31,921 bases of DNA from a virus (Duplodnaviria > Caudoviricetes), in IMG/VR virus record IMGVR_UViG_3300012017_001163, positions 1 through 31,921 of that record. One strand, given 5' to 3'. Under the pieces are notes generated by a model that saw nothing but the letters and a program-made list of their open reading frames with translations, did not search any database and was not told where the DNA came from. The position numbers and the translations under genes were made by a program. Of this stretch, positions 650 through 12,238 are shown one piece after another. Every line of letters begins with the position of its first letter. The stretch's first letter is position 1.

Positions 650-952
650 ATGAAAAATTTAAAAAATTTCGACAATTTCATATTTGAATGGCTAGATTCT
701 CCAGGAAGCGTTGATGTACCCGGACAAAGCACGGAGATTAGAGTAAATTCTAGAAATTACACTTCAGCAAATCCACAAATGCCTGAGATTATCGATGCAA
801 TGTATGAGACAGCAGAGGTAAATATTTTTTTAGATAACGAAGGAAAATCTGAAAACTTTAACAAGTTTCTTAGTAAAAAGAAAAGAACGGGAACAGAGGT
901 AACCGATTATATCAAGGAATCTTTTAGGGAGAAAGCAAAATCTAAAAAATGA
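650..952 (+). CDS. Hypothetical protein with capsid-targeting-like leader (MKNLKNFDNFIFE)
   Basis: 100-aa ORF preceded by AATATATA (635-642); overlaps next gene by ATGA. Confidence 0.75.
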   Translation: MKNLKNFDNFIFEWLDSPGSVDVPGQSTEIRVNSRNYTSANPQMPEIIDAMYETAEVNIFLDNEGKSENFNKFLSKKKRTGTEVTDYIKESFREKAKSKK

Positions 953-1401
953 GGCATCTTGTATTATTCGAAAATTACCAATCTACTGAATTAGATCTAG
1001 ATCCAAAGATCAGAGAAGAATATATTAAGAAATTAGAGGATCTGGTAAGCTTTCCTGATCTTTACCAGAACGATTTTGAAACATGGATGGCAGTTATAGA
1101 CGATGTGTCATATAAATATTTGGATGCAGAAGATATGTCTATCTCCAAACAAGAATATAATAACTTTCTAAAAGAATATAAAATGGTAAGGAATGCTAAT
1201 TCTAGCCAATTTCTTTTAGATGGGTTTCTTATCGGTATAAGCGGGGAGGTACCGGATACAGATTATGAGGATCTAAACGAAAAACCAATAGAATGGTGGT
1301 TAAAAGAGTTATCAGTATTTCCTAAAGAAATTGCTTATATGGCTAAATCTGTATGGGATAATATTAACATCTTTCCTATAGAATTTATCAGAATTAAATA
1401 A
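949..1401 (+). CDS. Acidic hypothetical protein with leader MRHLVLFENY
   Basis: 150-aa ORF translationally coupled to 650..952. Confidence 0.75.
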   Translation: MRHLVLFENYQSTELDLDPKIREEYIKKLEDLVSFPDLYQNDFETWMAVIDDVSYKYLDAEDMSISKQEYNNFLKEYKMVRNANSSQFLLDGFLIGISGEVPDTDYEDLNEKPIEWWLKELSVFPKEIAYMAKSVWDNINIFPIEFIRIK

Positions 1402-1432
1402 TATTCATGATGATATTTTCATACCAAATTTC

Positions 1433-2047
1433 TTATCCGATTTGCGTATCCGGTTGAAATACAATACTTATAGTTAAAGAACCATATTCTTCGATAGAAG
1501 GGCAAGGTATTATTATAGAAAATGAGGGAATATCTTTATCTGATTTTCCGTCTAAAGTTTTTATTACTTTATCTATTCCTCCTTTTAAGGCTTCTTTAAA
1601 TTTATCTATTCTTCTAATTTTTGTTCCTCCTCCCCATTCTTTTTTATTTTTAGCAGCAAAATCAGCTGGAATAATATAATCAAATGTTAAAATACCACTA
1701 TTGACTTTAAGATTTTTAAAATCCGGACTCATTTTTGCTTTGTCTAGGTCTAAAGTTAATCCTTTCAAAAGAGATAGATTTAAACTAGCAGAAAGGGTTT
1801 CTCCTATCTCATAACTTCCCTCGTCGGAAAGCATAAATTCTATTGAATCTGCTTCTATAAAAATATCTTTTGCTCTATACTTATCATCTATTCCGATAAC
1901 GCTTTTCTCTGATTCATCATTAATTGTAAAAGTCTTTTGTAAAGACGGTTTTATTCTTCCGTCGACTGCAAGGATTTTTTCAATATCTACAAATTCATTG
2001 AAAGCTTCTCCGATAAATTGTTCAAATAATTTAATATGTTTTTTCAT
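1433..2047 (-). CDS. Hypothetical protein with leader MKKHIKLFEQFIGE (putative internal head protein)
   Basis: 204-aa ORF; leader is the closest match to T4 internal-protein CTS (MKTYQEFIAE); GATATATA upstream. Confidence 0.75.
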   Translation of the reverse strand: MKKHIKLFEQFIGEAFNEFVDIEKILAVDGRIKPSLQKTFTINDESEKSVIGIDDKYRAKDIFIEADSIEFMLSDEGSYEIGETLSASLNLSLLKGLTLDLDKAKMSPDFKNLKVNSGILTFDYIIPADFAAKNKKEWGGGTKIRRIDKFKEALKGGIDKVIKTLDGKSDKDIPSFSIIIPCPSIEEYGSLTISIVFQPDTQIG

Positions 2048-2074
2048 TTTATAGTTTTTAAATTTAATTTATCT

Positions 2075-2082
2075 TATATATC
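2075..2082 (-). promoter_or_regulatory. GATATATA motif, putative phage late promoter
   Basis: Exact 8-mer on the coding strand 27 nt upstream of ATG 2047; recurs upstream of at least six other genes. Confidence 0.55.
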
Positions 2083-2118
2083 AAAAAAAAAAACATATTC
2101 ATAGTTTAATTGATTCTC

Positions 2119-2517
2119 TCAAACCTGTTGGGTTCCCAAGTAACTTATTAATTTTTTATCGGTTGGGATAACAGATAGATCGCACTCTATAAAAATATTC
2201 CATGAATCTACCCCATATTTACCAATCCCTGGTAACTGACCTACATGTTCAAATCCATCAACCCATTTCTGACTTAACTTTATTATCCGGGATGCTTTTA
2301 CATTCTGAAATCCGGTTGTTTTTATGACCGCTGCCAGCCTTTCCGGATCACACCCAATAGTAGATACGGGATTTGGAATAAGTTCAAATACGGAGCTTAA
2401 AATAGGTCTAACTTGTTTATTATTAGTTTGATTTAAAAGAATACAGCAAACAAGCATTTTCCACGGGGAATTAATGTACTCCTCTTGTATAAGAATCTCT
2501 CTTCCTTTAATTTCCAT
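2119..2517 (-). CDS. MBD4-like HhH-GPD DNA glycosylase (minimal catalytic domain)
   Basis: LIQE...PWKMLVCCILLNQT, HhH motif LPGIGKYGVDSWNIF and PTDKKL (catalytic Asp), matching the MBD4 glycosylase pattern. The likely start is ATG 2517 (MEIKG), not the GTG at 2568. Confidence 0.8.
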   Translation of the reverse strand: MEIKGREILIQEEYINSPWKMLVCCILLNQTNNKQVRPILSSVFELIPNPVSTIGCDPERLAAVIKTTGFQNVKASRIIKLSQKWVDGFEHVGQLPGIGKYGVDSWNIFIECDLSVIPTDKKLISYLGTQQV

Positions 2518-2666
2518 ATTATAAAGATAATGAATCAATGCGTATATTAAAAATAAAAGCGCACGCACGTATAAAATATTTTTTTAAAAATTTTTAGTGT
2601 TTTTATTTTTTTCCCCGAGTTACTGTTCTACATTTACCTTATAAATCAATTAAAAAAATAGAAATT

Positions 2667-3140
2667 ATGAAAACAGAAAACAAGTTTAGCAAAGTAACAG
2701 GATTGGTAATCGCTCTTACTTTTTTCTTCAACACTTCATATGCAAACGGAGGTAACGGGGATAAAATCAAATCAGTTCAAGACAGCATCGAATCTGGATT
2801 CGAAAAAGCATACGGTTCTGACATTAAGCTAGATGCAACTTTGAAAAACGGTTGCTACAACTATCTGAAAGAATTCCGAACCGGTACGTCCCAAGGATTT
2901 GTACAGAATCAAGGACACATCTCAACCGTATTGAATGCTTCTAATATTACAGGTAATGCAATCAAGGGGGTAGACCTAATCGACACCTACGGATATGAAT
3001 TCTTCGTAGAACGAGCATTAAACACTCTTACTACCAGTGAGTTTAAATCATATTTCAACCGATACGGAAGTCCTAAGAAATTCTGGGTAGAACAGATCGA
3101 AGAAAACGGGGTATACTACGTGGTTATCTCTTTTGACTAA
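2667..3140 (+). CDS. Secreted/periplasmic hypothetical protein
   Basis: Sec-type signal: basic N-terminus, hydrophobic VTGLVIALTFFF, SYA cleavage site; isolated plus-strand gene followed by a terminator. Confidence 0.75.
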   Translation: MKTENKFSKVTGLVIALTFFFNTSYANGGNGDKIKSVQDSIESGFEKAYGSDIKLDATLKNGCYNYLKEFRTGTSQGFVQNQGHISTVLNASNITGNAIKGVDLIDTYGYEFFVERALNTLTTSEFKSYFNRYGSPKKFWVEQIEENGVYYVVISFD

Positions 3141-3157
3141 TAAAAAACAAACATCAC

Positions 3158-3188
3158 AAAAAAGGAGGTCCTAGGACCTCCTTTTTTT
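3158..3188. terminator. Bidirectional intrinsic terminator
   Basis: Perfect 30-bp palindrome AAAAAAGGAGGTC-CTAG-GACCTCCTTTTTT (3158-3187) between convergent genes, with U-tracts in both directions. Confidence 0.9.
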
Positions 3189-3201
3189 ATGTGCTATTGT
3201 T

Positions 3202-4467
3202 TTATGCATTGTCTATATCTAAATAAGCATAGAAGCTAAGAGTAATTTGATATAATCTGTATTGGTCTGCCTTTATAGTTTTATTCTGTGCAACATACTG
3301 AATCACGTCAGAAGCTGGTTCTACTGCACTTAGAGTACCAGTTACATTTAACGTAACTTTTCTCCAAGTTTTAAGATCTTCAGTACTTTCTAAAGGCTGG
3401 ATGTTAGTTTCTTTAGAAGCTGTGATAGATGCTCCTGGGATCAATGTTTTAAGAAATTCAACTACCGAACCAGCTCTATCTAAACAAAGCTTCTTATTGA
3501 AAGCCTCGTCGCCTTCTTTAGAAGCACCACCAACTACTTCTACTGAGGTAACTGAGGTAAAGTTAGTTTGAATAGCGTTGAAGATGTTTCTTTTACCATC
3601 CTCTAGCAATTCAGATTTAGCTTTTACGAATAAAGTTCCGTTATCTTGGATATCTACAGCTTTTTCTGTTGTTCCCCCACCTTTCTTAATTGTAATAGGA
3701 ACAATTTCACTTACTGATACGCTACCTCCCTTACCTTTCTGCACATCTTGAACTCCATAAAGAGTTAATTTTACTCTTAAAGCATCATCTGAGGAGTACG
3801 AGAGGCTTGGGTCAGCAAAACCAGATAATGGCCTAATCGTGTTTGCTTCGGTATTTTTTTTCCATTCGAGCTTAGAATCACCATTGGTTATATAAATCTG
3901 ATTATCACTATCAGCGTTAGGTGTAGCTGTGCCCTTCTTTCCCAGACGGACAAAATCTAAGTCAGCTCCTTCTTTTTTCTGTGTCCAATATTTTTTATCC
4001 TTTCTTGCTTCGGTATTATATAGATTTATTCCTGTAAGAATTCCCTCTAATGGTACTTTATTATCGGTAACCGCCACGGTTTTAACTGAAGTAGCAGGAA
4101 CCTCGTCGCAGAATACTTGACCAGCTACTACGTTGTTAATAATCACTCGGTCAATACAGATTTCTGTGTCTGCTACATTAAGTTCCATTTTCTTATTCTC
4201 CAAAGAAACATTTAGCATATTTCCAAGAGCATCACCTAAAGCTTTAACTACTTCTTCTGAAACTCCTTCAGCCATTTTCTCAATTGCAGCTATTTGGGTT
4301 GTTGTAATGGCTTTAATGTTAGATTTAAATTCCGACTCCTCGGCAACTGTTGAGGCTTTAATGTATTGGGATAAAATCTCTTTAGCCTGACTAAAGCTAT
4401 ATCCCTCGTTAATCATTCTTGCAGACTCTATCAGGAAATCAGCAAATGTTAATACTGGTCTTTTCAT
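3202..4467 (-). CDS. Protein with C-terminal OmpA-C-like (peptidoglycan-binding) domain and capsid-targeting-like leader
   Basis: LFVKAKSELL...VEVVGGASKEGDEAFNKKLCLDRAGSVVEFL...WRKV matches OmpA_C-like N-x2-L-x3-RA-x2-V-x2-[FY]-L; N-terminus MKRPVLTFADFLIESARMINE; no signal peptide. Confidence 0.75.
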   Translation of the reverse strand: MKRPVLTFADFLIESARMINEGYSFSQAKEILSQYIKASTVAEESEFKSNIKAITTTQIAAIEKMAEGVSEEVVKALGDALGNMLNVSLENKKMELNVADTEICIDRVIINNVVAGQVFCDEVPATSVKTVAVTDNKVPLEGILTGINLYNTEARKDKKYWTQKKEGADLDFVRLGKKGTATPNADSDNQIYITNGDSKLEWKKNTEANTIRPLSGFADPSLSYSSDDALRVKLTLYGVQDVQKGKGGSVSVSEIVPITIKKGGGTTEKAVDIQDNGTLFVKAKSELLEDGKRNIFNAIQTNFTSVTSVEVVGGASKEGDEAFNKKLCLDRAGSVVEFLKTLIPGASITASKETNIQPLESTEDLKTWRKVTLNVTGTLSAVEPASDVIQYVAQNKTIKADQYRLYQITLSFYAYLDIDNA

Positions 4468-4499
4468 AATGGTAGTTTTTATTTTATTTTTAAAATTGT

Positions 4500-4511
4500 T
4501 ATTTATATATC
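4500..4511 (-). promoter_or_regulatory. GATATATAAATA, putative late promoter (contains T4 late consensus TATAAATA)
   Basis: Reverse complement of tatttatatatc upstream of ATG 4467. Confidence 0.6.
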
Positions 4512-4545
4512 ACCAAAGAATATGAAAATCTACGTGTTTAACGAA

Positions 4546-4926
4546 TTAGGTGATTTGTATTTTTTTTGATCCTTTTTTTGATCTTTCCGGAATTTTTATT
4601 TCCAATACCCCGTTTTTCATTTCAGCTGAGGCTCCATCAGTATTAAATTTTTCAGATATTAGGTATGTCTTTATATCTTCGACATTCCAATTATTCGATC
4701 TGTTTATTTCTAGAGTCAGTTTATTGGCTTCAAAAGAAACAGAGATATCTTCTCTGGCCAAACCAGGTAAAGAAAATTCAATATTAAGCTTTCCGTCTTT
4801 TATTTCAGACTTGTGGGTATCATTAGATAACCCAGATTTAGCTGATACAACGCTATCCAAAAAGGAATCACTCAAGGTAGATGATAGGATAGTGGGAAAC
4901 ATGTTTCTAAATTCTTTTGTGTTCAT
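4546..4926 (-). CDS. Small heat-shock protein (Hsp20/alpha-crystallin)
   Basis: IEFSLPGLAREDISVSFEANKLTL...ASAEMKNGVLEIKIP, the canonical Hsp20 motifs. Confidence 0.92.
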   Translation of the reverse strand: MNTKEFRNMFPTILSSTLSDSFLDSVVSAKSGLSNDTHKSEIKDGKLNIEFSLPGLAREDISVSFEANKLTLEINRSNNWNVEDIKTYLISEKFNTDGASAEMKNGVLEIKIPERSKKGSKKIQIT

Positions 4927-4973
4927 AATATGTTTTATTTTTTACTTATTTTAGTACAAAAACAGTTCCATAT

Positions 4974-5000
4974 AAAAAAAGAAGACTAAATGTCTTCTTT
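4974..5000 (-). terminator. Intrinsic terminator after 5045..5515
   Basis: AAAGAAGAC-taaat-GTCTTCTTT hairpin with an adjacent A-run, which reads as a U-tract on the minus strand. Confidence 0.6.
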
Positions 5001-5044
5001 CCCTATATTTATTATAATACTAATTGCCAAAATAGTAAGCCGAT

Positions 5045-5515
5045 TTATTTTTTTCTACTTTTTATAAAATCTATATAAGAAATAAGATTTTTACCTTTTT
5101 TACCTTTCTTACGTGCAGCTGCAGTTCCTGCATTTAATGTGGTAAATTTATCACCACTTCCGGTTTTGTTTAAATCATTAAAACCAGCATTTGTTCCATC
5201 ATTGGAAGGTGTGCTTGGATTACCCATACCTGGGACATTTCCTAATGTTGCAAGACCTGGAGCGGGAGCGGAGGTAGGAGCTGGTGCAGCATCCATATCT
5301 TCCATTATTTTTTCCTCGTTACATCCCATTTCTTTAAGATATTCTTTAAGCTGCCATTTTTCAACGCAGTAGTTTTTTTCATTTAACCATTTTCCCATGC
5401 ACTCTGTCATGCAAGACTCATTGCACTTATTAAGGGTTTCGTTAATTTCTTTTTTCTCGTCCTCCATGCAGACTAGACATCTTCCTTTAGTTGTATTTCC
5501 AGTTGGATAAAACAT
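5045..5515 (-). CDS. Hypothetical low-complexity protein (Cys/Met/Glu-rich N-half, Pro/Gly/Ala linker, basic C-terminus)
   Basis: 156-aa ORF in a tightly packed minus-strand run; multiple x-N-E sites; C-terminal KNLISYIDFIK. Confidence 0.7.
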   Translation of the reverse strand: MFYPTGNTTKGRCLVCMEDEKKEINETLNKCNESCMTECMGKWLNEKNYCVEKWQLKEYLKEMGCNEEKIMEDMDAAPAPTSAPAPGLATLGNVPGMGNPSTPSNDGTNAGFNDLNKTGSGDKFTTLNAGTAAARKKGKKGKNLISYIDFIKSRKK

Positions 5516-5519
5516 AAAT

Positions 5520-5750
5520 TTAATCTAATATTTTTTTTATATTATGGGGAAATATTCTAACTATGTTACCCCCTTTATTTTTTGTTATATAACCTATAAT
5601 ATCATTGTATATATCGTATATGGGACCTTGAACTAAAAGTTCCCTATCTAAATTATCAAGAATCCATTTATTGTCTATCTGGCTGACCTCTTTTGCTCCT
5701 TTTCTTGAATTTAATGATTCTGCAACGCTATATCCTCCGCAATCACACAT
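5520..5750 (-). CDS. Hypothetical protein
   Basis: 76-aa ORF fills the gap between neighbours; AATATATA upstream (5765-5772). Confidence 0.65.
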   Translation of the reverse strand: MCDCGGYSVAESLNSRKGAKEVSQIDNKWILDNLDRELLVQGPIYDIYNDIIGYITKNKGGNIVRIFPHNIKKILD

Positions 5751-5770
5751 ATCTATTATTTTATTATATA

Positions 5771-6184
5771 TTATCTATAATCTTTCCTATCTTCTTTCCT
5801 TTTAAGGTACTGCCATAAATAGTTTAACCCTTTCTTATAATCTGCTATGTTCTTAAAAGGCTCCACAAATTTCTTGATGTCGTTTCCGCTTCCCTCTGGT
5901 GTTTCTTTAGATCTTATAGGATTATATCTTCTAACTGTTCCTGTCGGGTGAATTGTATAAAAAACATCCCCGTGGCCTTTCTCCCTTTGTTTGTTCTCTG
6001 TCCTAATAAACTTCATAGAGTTATTCAGCTCCTGCTGGTGTGATGTTTCCTCTTCAAATCCCAGATCCATGATTCTTTTATATTCTATTGATTTTCTTAT
6101 CCTATCCAAATTAATGGCTCTACGAGAATCTAATTTATACTCGTCCGATGGATCATATTCCTCAAAGATTACAACATGTTTCAC
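5771..6184 (-). CDS. Hypothetical protein with leader MKHVVIFEEY
   Basis: 137-aa ORF with GTG start directly after the GATATATAAATA motif. Confidence 0.7.
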   Translation of the reverse strand: MKHVVIFEEYDPSDEYKLDSRRAINLDRIRKSIEYKRIMDLGFEEETSHQQELNNSMKFIRTENKQREKGHGDVFYTIHPTGTVRRYNPIRSKETPEGSGNDIKKFVEPFKNIADYKKGLNYLWQYLKRKEDRKDYR

Positions 6185-6196
6185 TATTTATATATC
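6185..6196 (-). promoter_or_regulatory. GATATATAAATA, putative late promoter
   Basis: Same 12-mer as at 4500-4511; abuts the GTG start at 6184. Confidence 0.5.
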
Positions 6197-6216
6197 CTGA
6201 TTTTATTATCCTATTT

Positions 6217-6600
6217 TTAAGATTGTTTTGTGTTTATCCAGTCCCGATAATCCTTAAGATTTTGGAGGTTACCCTTTCCTCTTTTTTTTTGTTTAGCATC
6301 AGGATCAAGGAAAGGAATTATCTTTCCTGGTCCCTTCGGGTGAAACTGTGGTATTTTATCAGACCCAACCGGTTCTAAACTAACTGAAAGATTACCAATG
6401 ATATCCTCATCAATATGATGTGGTAAATTTTTATGCTTTGTTGAAGCATATTTTTCAAGCTCAGCTTTAGTCATTTCTTTAGCAAGTTTTAAAATATTAG
6501 CTCGGTATTTAGGATTTAGATCTTCTGGTTCCATTGCACCTATCTTTATAGCATAGGCCTGACCCATTAATCGTTGTTGTGCTGTACTAACTGCTGGCAT
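6217..6600 (-). CDS. DUF3008-like protein with C-terminal extension
   Basis: MPAVSTAQQRLMGQAYAIKIG...MTKAELEKYASTKHKNLP follows the DUF3008 pattern (MPAxSxAQQ...ASTKxKxLP). Confidence 0.75.
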   Translation of the reverse strand: MPAVSTAQQRLMGQAYAIKIGAMEPEDLNPKYRANILKLAKEMTKAELEKYASTKHKNLPHHIDEDIIGNLSVSLEPVGSDKIPQFHPKGPGKIIPFLDPDAKQKKRGKGNLQNLKDYRDWINTKQS

Positions 6601-6626
6601 ATTTTTATGATTTATTTCTGAACTTA

Positions 6627-7409
6627 TTACCTATTGATGCTTCCTCCAGTGGGTTTTTTATGTCTATTTTTATAATTTCTCTCGTAATCATATAAAACTT
6701 TTGGATTAGCTTTAAGATAAGCTATTTCTTTTCTTGTTTTTGGTAGAAGCTTATTAGATAAATCATTTAAGCTATTAGATAAAGAAACAGTAAATTGTGG
6801 GGTATTCCTGTATGTTGAAAAATAATCTATAAATCCAAGTAACTTTGCTGGATGTTCCGCATTGTCTTTTGATATGCTAGGGTCCGCAAACTTTCTCGTT
6901 ACTATAAAAGTTCCATAGCCTTCCCTACTGCCATCTATAGGATTTGCATTACCTTCTATTCCTGTCCATTCTTTTTTTTGTTTATCCACCGATAAAATTA
7001 TTCCAGTGTGTCCGTTTCCTGGATAGCCCCCCGTTTTTTTATCCTTACTAAGGTAGCAAAAAATCATTCCTGGTAAAACAGAGTTTATATCCAAATTTGG
7101 TTTATTAATCACTTTTTTTCCTTTTGTGGTATTCCATTGATTTTGAACTGAGCCTGTCTTAGCAATTTTATTTTTTATTTCCTGAGAAAATAGTGTTTTT
7201 GATAAAACACCATATATGAAAGCTGCACACCACGGATCGCCTGGATTTATATTAACTCCCCCCTGTAAGACTTCAACATTTGGTCCTTTATTGCTACCTC
7301 TAGGGGATTCCTCAGCATTGGTATCCGAGATTGCCTTTTTAAAGCTATCAATTACAGATTGATTGGTATTTTCAAATAAATATTGGCTAAAAGTTAATAT
7401 TTTTCCCAT
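6627..7409 (-). CDS. CHAP/NlpC-P60-like peptidoglycan amidase with capsid-targeting-like leader
   Basis: E-x-P-x-GSN, PWCAAF (catalytic Cys), GHTGII (His), IEGN; N-terminus MGKILTFSQYLFE. Confidence 0.85.
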   Translation of the reverse strand: MGKILTFSQYLFENTNQSVIDSFKKAISDTNAEESPRGSNKGPNVEVLQGGVNINPGDPWCAAFIYGVLSKTLFSQEIKNKIAKTGSVQNQWNTTKGKKVINKPNLDINSVLPGMIFCYLSKDKKTGGYPGNGHTGIILSVDKQKKEWTGIEGNANPIDGSREGYGTFIVTRKFADPSISKDNAEHPAKLLGFIDYFSTYRNTPQFTVSLSNSLNDLSNKLLPKTRKEIAYLKANPKVLYDYERNYKNRHKKPTGGSINR

Positions 7410-7937: not shown

Positions 7938-8114
7938 TTAAGATTTATTTTTTATTTCCTGAATTTCAATTCTTAATTCCTGAGCTAGATTTTTTAACTC
8001 CTGCATAGCTTTTCTTACTCTAGTTCCTGCAGTTACATTTCTTTTAGCTGAGAATTTCTCAACGTCACCTTGTGTTTGCTCAATTAGAGCTTTAATTTGT
8101 TCGAATTTTTCCAT
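7938..8114 (-). CDS. Histone H1-like protein (Hc1 family, Bacteroidota type); missed by ORF track
   Basis: Manual translation, 58 aa: MEKFEQIKALIEQTQGDVEKFSAKRNVTAGTRVRKAMQELKNLAQELRIEIQEIKNKS, containing the N-x2-AGTR-x-RK-x3-EL-K signature. Confidence 0.85.
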   Translation of the reverse strand: MEKFEQIKALIEQTQGDVEKFSAKRNVTAGTRVRKAMQELKNLAQELRIEIQEIKNKS

Positions 8115-8166: not shown

Positions 8167-8709
8167 CTATCTGCTTATAATTAATGTCATTTTAGATGAT
8201 CCTTCTTGGACGGACCAATTTAATCCCAGTTCCGATAGAGAAATTGATTTCATATATTCCAAATATGTTCCCTTGCCGTCATAAATTAAATTATCTTGTA
8301 TCTCGTCATATATTCTAATAATCTTTGGATTAATCTGAAGGTAATCGTTTACGCATTTATAAACGTACTTCATTGTTCTAGATAATTCACCTGAACCCAT
8401 TTTAAATTTTTGTGAGTTCATTCCCGGGATATCCTCCTTTTCGGCTGCAATATCTTCTATTATCTCTGGTGATATCTCGTTTATTGTTAATACACAATAT
8501 GAATTTTTAGGACCCTCTATTACTTCTCTGTCTGAATATTTACCGATAATTAGGTGATATGCTTCGGTGCCACCATTTTCCTTATCTAAATTAAAGAAAT
8601 AATGGTAGATATCGGATTCTTTTTTCCTTAAAAATTGGGAAGTTCCGAATCCATCACTCTCATTAACCTTAAATTTAAAATCGCTAAGTTTAGTTACAAA
8701 TCTGTTCAT
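8167..8709 (-). CDS. Hypothetical protein, last gene of the nucleotidyltransferase operon
   Basis: 180 aa; starts 2 nt after the stop of the 665-aa gene; leader-like N-terminus MNRFVTKLSDFKFKVNE. Confidence 0.75.
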   Translation of the reverse strand: MNRFVTKLSDFKFKVNESDGFGTSQFLRKKESDIYHYFFNLDKENGGTEAYHLIIGKYSDREVIEGPKNSYCVLTINEISPEIIEDIAAEKEDIPGMNSQKFKMGSGELSRTMKYVYKCVNDYLQINPKIIRIYDEIQDNLIYDGKGTYLEYMKSISLSELGLNWSVQEGSSKMTLIISR

Positions 8710-8711
8710 TG

Positions 8712-10709
8712 TTATTTATTTTTTTCTAATTTTTCCGTTATTAAATTTTCGGTAATTTGTCTGCCTTTTTTAGAAGAGACCATTTGCTGATAGAATGAAG
8801 ATATTGACTGGGGGACTGACTTTTTAAAAGCCAGGAAATCCTCCTTATCTAGGTAATCCCTTATCTCGCTTCCACTATTTTTTCTTGGGGTTTCTATTAA
8901 CTCCATTGGTTCATGAAAATCGGAACCAATCTTTTTTAGAAAATCTAATTGTTTATTATAATCATCAGATTTATCTTCCCCGCTTCCAATAGAAACTGGA
9001 AGATACCCAAGCTCTTTAGCCCTGCTGCAAATCGGGCCTAATAGTCCCTTATTGACGATAAAATATCCTTGTATTCTCTGAGGAAATTCCATGATTAAAC
9101 TTTCCATATACTTAGAAACCAGATTTAGATCAAAAGGAGAATCTTCCGATTTATCGTTTCCTGAATGAACTACTGCTACTATAGAAGGAAGCTCGTTTTT
9201 GTCCCTTAATACATCAACCATTTTCATATGACCGTTATGAAATGGTTGAAAACGGCCAACTATAAGATTTACTTTCTGGGGATCTCCTTTTTTAGCTTTA
9301 CTGTTATCTTTAACCGATTTATCGTCTATTGGCTTTGTATCAACCTTAGGTTTATCTACAGAATCAATTGTTTCTAGAGCTGTAATAAAGTCATTATAAG
9401 AATAGAAATGATCATCAAAATTTTCATCTGCCTCGTCACCTTCTAGTGTTAAGTGATCTAAATTTACAGGATCTATATTATTCTTTTTAAAATCTAGAAA
9501 TGATGGTATATTAGATTCGTTAGTCTTAACCAATTTCTTTTTTCTAACAGCAGTATCTATATTAGAAACTAGCATATTAAATTGATCAATTATGCCAGGT
9601 GTTATAATTCCATCAGTTCTTTTCTTAATTTTTCTGAATGAATTCAGAATAAGCTTAAATAAAGATTCATAGGAATCGTCATCCTCGATCCATTTCATAA
9701 CTCTAGGATCAGCAATCATATCCCTATTTAGTCTAAATTCTTCCTTCTTTAAATAATCTGGCTCCTGAAAATTAGCACCTTTATATTTGTATCCGTATTC
9801 TTCTAAAAATTTAGAAAAAACATCCGATATAAATGAAATATATCTTTTATCTTCAGAGTCACCTTTAACTTTAAAATTTTCTATTCCTCTATCCAAAATG
9901 AAATTCATTACATCGAGAATGGTAATGCCTAAAAAATCACTAGGAATCTCTTCAGATTTTTTACTAGATCGGGATTTTGCTATCTCAGTAAATACCGGAT
10001 CTACCATTTTAGAAAGTATAACATCTCCTTTATTATTGGAATCCGAGCTAAATCTAAATACTATCCCCTCTATTGGTTTATCTAAATCGTTATTTAATGC
10101 GCTGCTCTTTATCTCCGGATTAAGGACACCAAGTATAAATCTAACAAAACTCTTTGTTTTATATTCGTTAACTAGCTTATCAAAAGGTGTTCTAAGAAAA
10201 TCTAGAATCATACTTTTCTGTTCAGCTGATAAAATTCCTTGAAAAATTATGGGTGGGATTTCAACCCCTATCAGATTAGCCCAGACATCAAGTTTTTTTT
10301 TATCTGTAATTTGCTCAGAATCGGAATCCTCTTTAGGCTTAACATAAGAAAGAATTAAATTATTCTTAGGAATTCTGTCATAAGCAATTTCTACCGGGTT
10401 AGGATTTGAAAAATATTCCAATCCAAATTTCCACCCTCTAGGTATTTCTTTGATGATATGTATAGGTAAAGATTCTATATATAATATAGGCTTTTCGTAA
10501 TACTTCATTAAAGTCCTATCCACCATGGTAATAGGATTTCGCTGATCCCTTTTATAAAAAATAAATTTACCAGTCTCTACGTCTCTTTCAAACATAAATG
10601 CTGACCCGTCCATCTTTTCATTAACGGTCACGTAAGAATTAAAAAGATTTTCTACAAAATCCTTTCCCTTCTTATTATAAATGTCGTATAAATGACTTAT
10701 TCCTGACAT
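8712..10709 (-). CDS. Fusion: ATP-dependent RNA-ligase-like nucleotidyltransferase (N-term) + HIGH-motif cytidyltransferase/NMNAT-like domain (C-term)
   Basis: Motif I VNEKMDGS, III FGLEYF, IV IEGIVFR, V LSKMV; C-terminal LIVGRFQPFHNGH (HIGH), SPF and SGSEIR (SxSxxR). Confidence 0.8.
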   Translation of the reverse strand: MSGISHLYDIYNKKGKDFVENLFNSYVTVNEKMDGSAFMFERDVETGKFIFYKRDQRNPITMVDRTLMKYYEKPILYIESLPIHIIKEIPRGWKFGLEYFSNPNPVEIAYDRIPKNNLILSYVKPKEDSDSEQITDKKKLDVWANLIGVEIPPIIFQGILSAEQKSMILDFLRTPFDKLVNEYKTKSFVRFILGVLNPEIKSSALNNDLDKPIEGIVFRFSSDSNNKGDVILSKMVDPVFTEIAKSRSSKKSEEIPSDFLGITILDVMNFILDRGIENFKVKGDSEDKRYISFISDVFSKFLEEYGYKYKGANFQEPDYLKKEEFRLNRDMIADPRVMKWIEDDDSYESLFKLILNSFRKIKKRTDGIITPGIIDQFNMLVSNIDTAVRKKKLVKTNESNIPSFLDFKKNNIDPVNLDHLTLEGDEADENFDDHFYSYNDFITALETIDSVDKPKVDTKPIDDKSVKDNSKAKKGDPQKVNLIVGRFQPFHNGHMKMVDVLRDKNELPSIVAVVHSGNDKSEDSPFDLNLVSKYMESLIMEFPQRIQGYFIVNKGLLGPICSRAKELGYLPVSIGSGEDKSDDYNKQLDFLKKIGSDFHEPMELIETPRKNSGSEIRDYLDKEDFLAFKKSVPQSISSFYQQMVSSKKGRQITENLITEKLEKNK

Positions 10710-10748
10710 ATTTTCTTTTAGTAATGTATATTATATTTATTATATCTA

Positions 10749-11678
10749 TTAAATCCTATTTATTTCGGACGGAACGTCCAAACCGCATCTTTTTAGATAT
10801 TCTTTAAATTTATCTTTGATCTCTTCCATGTTATCATATAATTCAAAAGAAGGGTTATTTATTATTGAAAATACCTGCTCAAATGTTTTTACTTCCTCTA
10901 ATGTATATCCTGGTCCCAGAGTAAAATCTATAAACTCCTGTGGATTTCGAGTAACAAATCTTTCGCTTCCTTCTATTTTTTTAGGATTCTTAAGTCTATC
11001 TTTAATCTTTCCTGCATAAGATTTGGTGTGCCAGAATAAACCGTCGCTAAGCATTATAACGGGGGAATCGTAATCCAATACCTGTCCGTCAGGATCTACC
11101 CTAGTAATTTTTCTTCTTGATGCTAATATTGCTGTTAGTAACCAATTTCGGTGAGCTGATTTATATTTACTCTCCGTTATTTTATAATTAGGCGAATAAT
11201 AAATAAATTTGGCCCATTCCATGCTAGATACCGCTATTAAATCTAATTGAACTATACCTTTATTAAAATCTCCTTGTATTGGCCAACCTAAACTAACTAT
11301 ACCTAAACCTTTCATATGTTTTATCTCCGGGTCGAATCCTAATTTTTCCGGGAGAGATTCCAAGATTAATTTATAAACTTCAGATGAACACTCCTTCGGA
11401 GTAATTCCATGTTCTCTAGAAAACCAACTGCTGTCGTATCCTATATCAAGATCGCCTGACGTATCTTCTGGGTTTTTCTTTTTCCCAATACTACCGATTA
11501 CAAGATATTGAGATCCCTCCTTGATTTGATTTATACCTAAGATAGGAAATAAAATAGATTTTATACTATCAAAGGTTTTAGGAAACTCGTCCTCTCTAAT
11601 ACTTCTTGATGTTTTTATAGCTGCTCCCCCTTCAAAAACTCTAGAGAATCCTGAGAAATCCATAATTTTATTTATCAT
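10749..11678 (-). CDS. Pol-beta superfamily nucleotidyltransferase
   Basis: VIGSIGKK...SGDLDIG (GS + DxD), third Asp in VQLDLI; leader MINKIMDFSGFSRVFE. Confidence 0.75.
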   Translation of the reverse strand: MINKIMDFSGFSRVFEGGAAIKTSRSIREDEFPKTFDSIKSILFPILGINQIKEGSQYLVIGSIGKKKNPEDTSGDLDIGYDSSWFSREHGITPKECSSEVYKLILESLPEKLGFDPEIKHMKGLGIVSLGWPIQGDFNKGIVQLDLIAVSSMEWAKFIYYSPNYKITESKYKSAHRNWLLTAILASRRKITRVDPDGQVLDYDSPVIMLSDGLFWHTKSYAGKIKDRLKNPKKIEGSERFVTRNPQEFIDFTLGPGYTLEEVKTFEQVFSIINNPSFELYDNMEEIKDKFKEYLKRCGLDVPSEINRI

Positions 11679-12213
11679 ATTTGGATGTTCTTTTATAATA
11701 TCTTTCCATCACGCCATTAATATAATCGGTGTACATTTCTTCGTCGTTGTTTTTAGGTTTTGTCGGGTCGTAATTAGGGCCAAAGAATTTTTTACCCTTA
11801 AGAATTCCCGATTTATAGAATTTTTCAGCGTCAGCTTCTGTGGTATTTGATTTAATGTTGTCCTGTTCCCATTTATCTATGATCTCTTCTTTTTTATTAC
11901 TAATATCTTCTTTGGAATATTTGGATACTGTATCCTTATTATCTCCTTTAGTAAAAAAATCAGATATTGCAGCACCTGCACCTATAATTAATCTAAAAGC
12001 TCCTGGGATTAAAGCTATTGCCTTATTTGCTGATACGAATTTATCAGTATTTGGGTCAGAATACCTACTATAGTATTTAGTACTATCGGTCTCAGTCTTA
12101 ATTCTGTCATTTACTCCTCTTAACCATTTACTAAATTTGTTTTTACCCTCTTTAGTTGACGATTCCTCATTTAAATTTTCCGATATAAACGAATCAAATT
12201 TTTTAATTCCCAT
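11668..12213 (-). CDS. Hypothetical protein with leader MGIKKFDSFISENLNE and a central hydrophobic/Gly-Ala helix
   Basis: 181 aa; AIALIPGAFRLIIGAGAAISDFF segment; overlaps the NTase start. Confidence 0.75.
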   Translation of the reverse strand: MGIKKFDSFISENLNEESSTKEGKNKFSKWLRGVNDRIKTETDSTKYYSRYSDPNTDKFVSANKAIALIPGAFRLIIGAGAAISDFFTKGDNKDTVSKYSKEDISNKKEEIIDKWEQDNIKSNTTEADAEKFYKSGILKGKKFFGPNYDPTKPKNNDEEMYTDYINGVMERYYKRTSKYDK

Positions 12214-12230
12214 GGAAATAGATTTTTATG

Positions 12231-12238
12231 TATATATC
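12231..12238 (-). promoter_or_regulatory. GATATATA motif, putative late promoter for the 12213-8167 operon
   Basis: Exact 8-mer 17 nt upstream of ATG 12213. Confidence 0.55.

Follow-up and report, generated by a model that had tools for sequence, protein, structure and literature searches.

The locus and its four genes

The 31.9-kb virus record IMGVR_UViG_3300012017_001163 (Caudoviricetes; all 31,921 nucleotides were analysed and are called the window below) carries on its minus strand an operon of four contiguous open reading frames (ORFs), encoding proteins of 181, 309, 665 and 180 amino acids (aa), in which three different nucleotidyltransferase folds are found: a minimal polymerase-X-like enzyme, an RNA-ligase-like domain and a HIGH-motif domain (Table 1). 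The window encodes T4-like genes (UvsW-type helicase, primase, gp32, RuvC-like resolvase, tail tube and tail fibres), its five complete relatives measure 290-435 kb, and the presence of Hc1 and DUF4494 genes, which we take to be linked with Bacteroidota, suggests a Bacteroidota host. An initial annotation, made from the sequence alone, had placed the four genes behind a promoter-like motif and had credited them with three nucleotidyltransferase motif sets and, in three of the four proteins, with a capsid-targeting-like leader. Genes and motif were found again at these positions, all three motif sets are intact in the 309- and 665-aa proteins, and the 665-aa fusion is the one protein of the four that has no such leader.

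The motif in front of the operon, GATATATA, is not enriched in the window as a whole (8 occurrences against 4.6 expected, with 11 of 100 shuffles reaching 8). The placement of [GA]ATATATA is non-random: 10 of its 12 sites lie no more than 45 nt in front of a start on the same strand, where 2.4% of positions fall, and ATATATA stands within 50 nt upstream of the 181-aa gene in all 35 non-redundant orthologs. Within the window it is carried by tail genes and leader-bearing genes and not by UvsW, primase, gp32 or RuvC. It is because of these carriers that we regard the motif as late, and the operon is probably made late.

Table 1. Features of the operon (window positions).
Feature	Positions	Strand	Remarks
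GATATATA, probable late operon promoter	12231..12238	-	kept at 35/35 orthologous loci
181-aa protein, likely head cargo	11668..12213	-	F-x-x-F leader and L-N-E site
309-aa minimal polymerase-X-like nucleotidyltransferase	10749..11678	-	palm and thumb; G62-S63, D76, D78, D146
16-residue leader of the 309-aa protein	11631..11678	-	ends V-F-E16; predicted removal by prohead protease
Gly17-Gly18, predicted mature polymerase N-terminus	11625..11630	-	fixed across the family
665-aa ligase-like and HIGH fusion	8712..10709	-	without N-terminal leader
Rnl2-like nucleotidyltransferase domain, residues 5-243	9981..10697	-	K32-M-D34-G, R54, E98, E214-G-I-V, K234
Low-confidence linker, residues 392-475	9285..9536	-	invariant E398 and E423; likely internal protease cuts
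HIGH nucleotidyltransferase domain, residues 478-650	8760..9278	-	RFQPFH491NGH494, SGSEIR; NMNAT/PPAT fold
180-aa protein	8167..8709	-	leader and V-N-E site

A minimal polymerase-X-like enzyme

The model of the 309-aa protein is of high confidence (predicted local distance difference test, pLDDT, 90; residues 1-17 below 50), and its eight best matches in a VIA structural search all belong to the X family of DNA polymerases (Z 9.1-9.6, with 164-202 residues aligned at 11-18% identity), including the minimal PolX of African swine fever virus (ASFV; Z 9.3, rmsd 3.4, 164 of 176 residues). Model residues 24-266 superpose on the palm and thumb of ASFV PolX and Pol beta, and the structural matches include no lyase or fingers domain. 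RNA-tailing enzymes follow at Z 8.0 or below with about 100 residues aligned, and protein-modifying nucleotidyltransferases rank low. The three catalytic-motif aspartates are invariant in 28/28 and 10/10 alignment rows. Judged on its model, the enzyme is closer to X-family DNA polymerases than to RNA-tailing or CCA-adding enzymes, which moves weight from tRNA end repair towards nicks and gaps in duplexes.

The protein shares the palm-thumb, the G-S...D-x-D signature and the third Asp with ASFV PolX, Pol beta, lambda and mu, TdT and Thermus PolX. It differs from them in being phage-encoded, in its predicted cleavable leader and in its fixed Gly-Gly. Since no profile of Pfam, PHROG or NCBIfam matches it, that of the X family included, we describe it as working like an X-family polymerase and do not file it as a member. 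The polymerase profile recovers 947 representatives at E <= 0.001; in what follows, P numbers designate such representatives and L numbers the loci of relatives.

The ligase-like and HIGH domains of the 665-aa fusion

In the 665-aa protein (model pLDDT 72), the conserved residues of the N-terminal domain correspond to ligase motifs I, Ia, III, IV and V. The three best Foldseek rows for this domain are T4 Rnl2 (E 4.6e-7 to 1.5e-6), which aligns at Z 8.5 in VIA; a helical region follows up to residue 389, and no OB domain is predicted. Capping enzymes are missing from the 50 rows of either fold search with the 665-aa model. The domain resembles T4 Rnl2 and Deinococcus Rnl5 in motifs, in fold and in having no OB domain, but departs from them in its fusion to HIGH, in the single Lys of motif V, in a PF09414 score below the gathering cut-off (16.1 bits against 27; one ortholog reaches the cut-off, marginally), and in having a sister clade devoid of the motif I Lys. 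All five complete relatives encode a canonical RNA ligase elsewhere, which argues that the operon ligase is not an ordinary cytoplasmic RNA ligase.

Degenerate relatives of the ligase, with ENLDG, ENIQG or EMIDG in place of motif I, are retained in phages of up to 735 kb (L073, L074, L262-L271; L082:7001-8962; L083:6908-8263; L084:6962-8323; L238:8416-11721); those of L082 and L238 immediately follow a GG-type KxDG gene that is intact. This arrangement suggests a non-catalytic or step-3-only role.

The linker between the two domains is predicted with low confidence and contains invariant E398 (T-N-E-S) and E423 (L-E-G); leader-like motifs at positions 401 (6.0 bits) and 435 (4.5 bits) exceed the 99th percentile of the background. 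The HIGH domain, with its HxGH motif and Rossmann-like fold, scores above the PF01467 cut-off (26.6 bits against 21) and matches NMNAT, NadM and PPAT structures at Z 13.5-15.1, archaeal NMNAT and NadM being best (Z 15.1; sequence E 4.5e-5) and PPAT scoring 13.5. The three folds named in the initial annotation thus reappear in the models as PolX-like, T4 Rnl2-like and NMNAT/PPAT-like. By sequence the HIGH domain is related to the cyanophage 'cytidylyltransferases' phrog_395 and phrog_3041 (E 4.6e-9) and to gp140 of S-SZBM1 (E 3.5e-6).

Association of the three folds in distant phages

Co-occurrence of these genes across phages, which the initial annotation had put forward as a check, is borne out in distant phages for the three folds and includes single-chain fusions of all three. 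Polymerase, a gene of no assigned function, a KxDG (ligase-like) gene and HIGH stand in a row in Xanthomonas phage BUDD and Stenotrophomonas phage Mendera; SRILMA has the polymerase followed by a KxDG-HIGH fusion; in Phosso and Atu_ph07 the KxDG gene adjoins the polymerase; Mel-JY01 carries a HIGH-KxDG fusion in reverse domain order; and in S-SZBM1 a DUF6267 gene precedes the HIGH gene. This cyanophage pair resembles the window in having a related HIGH beside a KxDG gene, and cyanophage HIGH proteins are found in virions; DUF6267 is a separate KxDG family and no polymerase was detected in S-SZBM1.

Among the 150 best polymerase representatives, 31 are at least 440 aa long, and these combine the polymerase with HIGH and a ligase-like domain (6), with HIGH (8), with a ligase-like domain (3) or with neither (14). 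The partner is therefore exactly HIGH and/or KxDG in 17 of 31, the KxDG domains coming from at least three families that are unrelated to each other. Because six of these proteins went into the making of two ligase profiles, independent support matters; it is provided by Pfam DUF6267 in P0172, P0198, P0170 and P0230, by PF09414 (E 6.8e-6) in P0228, by alignment A4 for P0166, and by P0197 and P0214, which stand outside the profile that found them. Since the KxDG families cannot be aligned with one another beyond the motifs, the link between polymerase and ligase is one between folds and not between orthologs, and the comparison gives no support to orthology of the distant KxDG families with the window ligase. 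At 80 loci encoding a GG-type ligase, HIGH lies in the same ORF in 38. Taken together, the module is real, conserved and more than a set of chance neighbours.

Tandem polymerase domains in two or three copies, mostly each behind its own E/GG (see below), occur in P0122, P0138, P0155, P0197 and P0214, and P0122 and P0214 contain a Nudix domain as well. Genes of 314-445 aa adjoin the module in BUDD, Mendera, SRILMA and S-SZBM1; they have no Pfam support and display what we take by eye to be PD-(D/E)xK-like motifs. Proteins of this kind lie beside or are fused to the module at L086:4138-5139, L089:6911-7855, L090:9944-10738 and L094:4324-5643, with further cases, again unsupported by Pfam, in L256:2538-3875, P0148, P0179 and L238.

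Conservation and loss among close relatives

The best 80 of 91 confirmed close relatives gave 79 loci, and 67 of these keep the ligase Lys, HxGH and the polymerase gene; three of the others are cut by contig ends and nine have no polymerase gene in the available DNA (at one of the nine, L079, the contig ends 638 nt upstream). Among close relatives synteny extends over the entire primase-DUF3008 block, so that synteny of the operon is in itself weak evidence. Of the loci without polymerase, L068-L070 have lost HxGH, L073-L075 have lost the ligase Lys and L038 is intact. A second search yielded ten Lys-less loci, two of them on contigs already seen, and none has a polymerase gene; searching entire records of those lineages, which are 5-81% complete, for the polymerase gave no hit either. 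In a UvsW tree, which held 22 of the 31 rows intended for it and lacked L038 and L069 among others, the Lys-less loci form one clade, which reduces the losses to two or three events at most. With so few events, joint decay of the polymerase and of the ligase and HIGH motifs was set aside as proof of one pathway.

Head-targeting-like leaders and a fixed Gly-Gly start

The leader shared by the 309-, 181- and 180-aa proteins consists of F-x-x-F followed by a hydrophobic-x-Glu site. In T4, gp21 cleaves after L/I-X-E and so removes capsid targeting sequences (PMC9026906). The T4 internal proteins and Alt have a similar short leader, in which two aromatic residues serve as anchors and the end is L/I-X-E-like; the window's putative cargo differs in consisting of nucleotide-transfer enzymes and in that cleavage would create a conserved N-terminus.

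This predicted N-terminus is fixed across the polymerase family. Of the 150 best representatives, 126 align at Gly17-Gly18 and 24 do not; with a slash marking the position in front of the dipeptide, the aligned starts read E/GG (94), E/SG (9), M/GG (16), M/SG (2) or otherwise (5), so that Gly-Gly or Ser-Gly directly follows Glu or Met1 in 121 of 126. E/GG is also retained at internal polymerase domains of polyproteins. M-G-G opens the protein in four cultured phages and M-S-G in Lak-B2, and CP220 has I-L-E/G-G. Note that the profile itself contains E-G-G, which favours E-G-G in the ranking but not the Met cases. Removal of the initiator Met before a small residue is a second route to a free Gly; protease cut and Met removal would thus leave a free amine at the same polymerase residue. 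After the Glu of the 180-aa family, S-D is fairly conserved (19 of 35), the 181-aa family has no conserved dipeptide (6 of 45 for the commonest), and GG-type ligases show E/GG in 34 of 41 distinct contexts.

Homologs in published virion proteomes

Virion delivery of the module, at least in part, is probable. The polymerase homolog of Atu_ph07, gp65 (record positions 51340-52173; E 2e-3 from the window protein and 2e-11 from P0230), has motifs that align with those of the window polymerase and a computed mass, 32,160, that matches the virion table entry, where it is listed with 10 unique peptides and 36.8% coverage in phage purified with polyethylene glycol (PMC6102473, Table S5). As gp65 has no leader and is nevertheless in the virion, the leader is not required in Atu_ph07. 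HIGH homologs are reported in virions of S-CREM2 (3 peptides; PMC10665884), S-SZBM1 (2 peptides; PMC9146016, Table 1) and S-SCSM1 (PMC9602691), although the authors allow for carry-over into virion samples. The virion tables consulted give no cleavage sites. The head packaging proposed in the initial annotation is thus supported for the polymerase and HIGH homologs, but not for the ligase partners, which are absent from three published proteomes: in the virion table of PMC6102473, gp53-65 and gp67-69 are listed and gp66, the KxDG gene of Atu_ph07, is not; gp141 (DUF6267) is not among the 30 virion proteins of S-SZBM1 given in PMC9146016; and the DUF6267 gene of S-CREM2 is not among the 52 given in PMC10665884.

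Proposed function of the module

We propose, with a probability of about 0.4, that the operon encodes a virion-delivered kit that fills and seals breaks: ribonucleotides would be added at a nick by the polymerase, and the ligase would then close it. Transcription from GATATATA would take place late, and the leaders would direct the polymerase and the two small proteins into the prohead. By analogy with T4, a protease would cut after Glu so that the polymerase starts at Gly17-Gly18, and cuts in the linker would probably separate ligase from HIGH. Once in the cell, the polymerase would lengthen the 3'-OH strand of a duplex at a nick or a short gap, ribonucleotides being the most likely building blocks; the ligase would form Lys32-AMP and seal the resulting 3'-ribo nick. 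The likeliest substrate would be phage DNA that host nucleases cut on its entry, ahead of phage gene expression. Delivery in the head would let the kit act that early. HIGH would transfer a nucleoside monophosphate (NMP) to a phosphorylated acceptor and is taken here as an accessory travelling with the kit. The sealing step draws on the fold and on a precedent: according to PMC5397189, Rnl2/Rnl5 ligases seal nicks with 3'-OH ribonucleotide ends, the Deinococcus ribo-patch model proposes that a ribonucleotide-adding repair polymerase makes such ends, and whether ligases of this type repair DNA, RNA or both is an open question. A complex prediction for the ligase (residues 2-392) with the mature polymerase (17-309) scored 0.00, which decides neither for nor against a complex.

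A number of observations, in addition to the missing ligase partners in the three proteomes, weigh against this proposal. For the 309-aa model Foldseek ranks the same families as VIA, with none at E <= 0.001. The window ligase has no N-terminal leader, and its linker motifs score lower than 90% of real leaders do (10th percentile, 10.4 bits), a site inside a folded domain reaching 8.8. The KxDG families share only motifs with the window ligase and with each other (hhalign probability about 1%). No polymerase lies near the GG-type ligase at any of the 80 loci, many of which are on short contigs, and none was found in five complete records with ligase-like genes, in a search run without a positive control. 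Conversely, Lak-B2 and CP220 have the polymerase and no detected ligase-HIGH relative. Many phages retain only one or two parts of the module, and fusions within cleavable head polyproteins can reflect co-packaging only. That the genes form one obligatory pathway, as the initial annotation's single pathway would imply, is not supported, since parts of the module occur alone.

These last points are also those on which one would argue that the proteins are independent head cargo sharing a late promoter and a protease tag, with adjacency and fusion serving packaging. The syntenic primase-DUF3008 block leaves within-clade synteny with little to say, 14 of the 31 long polymerase relatives have neither partner, parts occur alone, and ligases were not detected in virions. 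We nevertheless hold independent cargo to be unlikely, as 17 of 31 fusions are to exactly HIGH and/or KxDG from at least three unrelated KxDG families, and the ligase or HIGH motifs are usually degenerate where the polymerase is missing (in two or three events). Repair of tRNA or other RNA after host anticodon nucleases, the polymerase restoring a nucleotide and the ligase rejoining the halves as proposed for RlaP and an RNA ligase, appears rather improbable. The fold matches of the 665-aa model to Rnl2 and fungal tRNA ligases would suit it, CCA-adding domains occur in polymerase polyproteins P0192 and P0212, and 24 long GG-type ligase polyproteins, chosen for a start inside the contig, contain PNK/Zeta-like kinase (8), CCA-adding (3) and HD (1) domains, partners that point to tRNA and away from the fill-and-seal kit. 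This candidate of the initial annotation thus gains from its fusion partners, but the polymerase fold is nearer to duplex-acting X-family enzymes than to RNA-tailing ones, the Pfam RlaP profile matches neither the window protein nor three cultured-phage homologs at E <= 0.1, and canonical RNA ligases are present elsewhere in 5/5 complete relatives. The RlaP and ATP-grasp RNA ligase pair of jumbo phages is in print (PMC7824862) and resembles the module in linking a Pol-beta-fold nucleotidyltransferase to a ligase; the window protein differs by its PolX-type thumb, and a HIGH partner and head tags are outside the RlaP description in the available text of that paper.

Two further readings give HIGH or NMP transfer the leading part. 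As cyanophage papers propose, HIGH could be a nicotinamide mononucleotide (NMN) adenylyltransferase, which would restore NAD+ where defences deplete it; the other enzymes would then be unrelated to it. Both in structure and in sequence HIGH is matched best by archaeal NMNAT and NadM, in some polyproteins it is joined to Nudix or kinase domains as in NadM and NadR, and it is the only PF01467 match in two complete relatives that have a phosphoribosyltransferase. Against this, PPAT is nearly as good a match, the domain stays far under every NCBIfam NMNAT-family cut-off (30.6 bits against 127; 22.6 against 181), and NMNAT sequence alignments reach only its ATP-binding start and S-G-T end. A scan of 29 window genes found no Nampt, PnuC or RNK partner, and a phosphoribosyltransferase is present in 3/5 complete relatives only, far from the cassette and with no HIGH gene beside it. 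One of these (NAPRTase; L274:3251-5701) lies beside a PRPP-synthetase-like gene in a NARP1-like pair. NARP1 as described in PMC13464706 has this layout and needs no NMNAT; NAD systems of phages are treated in PMC9503650. An NMNAT-fold domain in a phage is what the window shares with NARP1-3, but its locus has no Nampt, PnuC or RNK. NAD+ restoration, also suggested in the initial annotation, is accordingly very unlikely, with no salvage partner at the locus and no phosphoribosyltransferase in two of the five complete relatives. We regard as hardly credible that the enzymes serve host takeover by tagging proteins or RNA (capping, NMPylation), the acceptor being either a host protein or the N-terminal amine exposed by cleavage. 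The fixed Gly-Gly N-terminus, the three NMP-transfer chemistries and the example of T4 Alt, an injected modifying enzyme (PMC9026906), would fit tagging, but capping enzymes do not appear among the 50 rows of either fold search of the 665-aa model and protein-modifying nucleotidyltransferases rank low for the polymerase.

Returning to the fill-and-seal kit, its most speculative form, which we consider doubtful, would be a widespread class of phage zymogens: the head protease would arm a packaged PolX by exposing its Gly-Gly alpha-amine, and armed PolX, RNA-type ligase and HIGH would be injected as a ready ribo-patch system to reseal the genome after restriction or CRISPR cuts, ahead of all phage gene expression. 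Chemistry at an N-terminal amine has precedents in T4 endonuclease V, Fpg and trypsin activation. The amine would itself take part in the chemistry, perhaps as a nucleophile in place of the lyase domain that the enzyme does not have, perhaps by accepting an NMP, or as an activation switch of the trypsin kind.

The small proteins and neighbouring genes

Neither the 181- nor the 180-aa protein matches a family in Pfam, PHROG or NCBIfam profile scans; best ESM Atlas scores of 0.78 and 0.88, respectively, are leads only. The 181-aa gene is the fastest-evolving of the four, and nothing ties its product to the enzyme pathway. At L042:6001-8568, ligase-HIGH and the 180-aa protein form one ORF of 855 aa with the second leader retained inside. 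At L041:5549-5998 and 30 other loci, the polymerase gene is separated from ligase-HIGH by a 135-160 aa gene of no known family; it belongs to the more distant half of the clade, persists after loss of the polymerase gene and is absent from the window. At L079:2675-6149, three genes (metallopeptidase-, vWA- and AAA+ ATPase-like by eye) separate the ligase-HIGH and 180-aa genes, and insertions of similar size occur in the Lys-less clade (L263-L265, L267, L269, L270).

Leader-bearing genes behind the same motif start at window positions 650, 949, 1433, 3202, 5771 and 6627 (region 650-7409); two of them encode an OmpA-like protein (3202-4467) and a CHAP-like peptidase (6627-7409), either of which would be unusual as head cargo. 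A host-type histone H1-like Hc1 gene (7938-8114; PF07432, E 8e-22), with its own ATATATA site and conserved in the clade, lies directly downstream of the operon. A HhH-GPD DNA glycosylase-like gene (2119-2568; E 2e-9), 5.6 kb from the operon and without a leader, is a possible base-excision partner. UvsW is split or flanked by ORFs of 256-289 aa in L016, L017, L019, L030, L032, L033, L042, L265 and L271, probably introns or homing endonucleases.

Significance

A module of these three folds with a Gly-Gly start was not found described in the literature searched, which was mainly open-access; supplements of PMC7824862 may list the proteins. The main text of PMC9226535, on prokaryotic PolX, does not contain the word 'phage', and the literature search returned no paper on DUF6267. 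To judge from the sequences, the module would be a variant of polymerase-plus-ligase repair modules that we have not found described in print. The HIGH 'cytidylyltransferase' recurs in T4-like virion proteomes without an assigned function, and the module ties it to a polymerase; it links both HIGH and Rnl2/Rnl5-type ligases to a polymerase-X family that numbers about 950 sequence clusters, with cultured carriers in Atu_ph07, Phosso, BUDD, Mendera and SRILMA. An injected repair kit, if this reading is true, would be a form of anti-defence that undoes the damage rather than blocking the nuclease.

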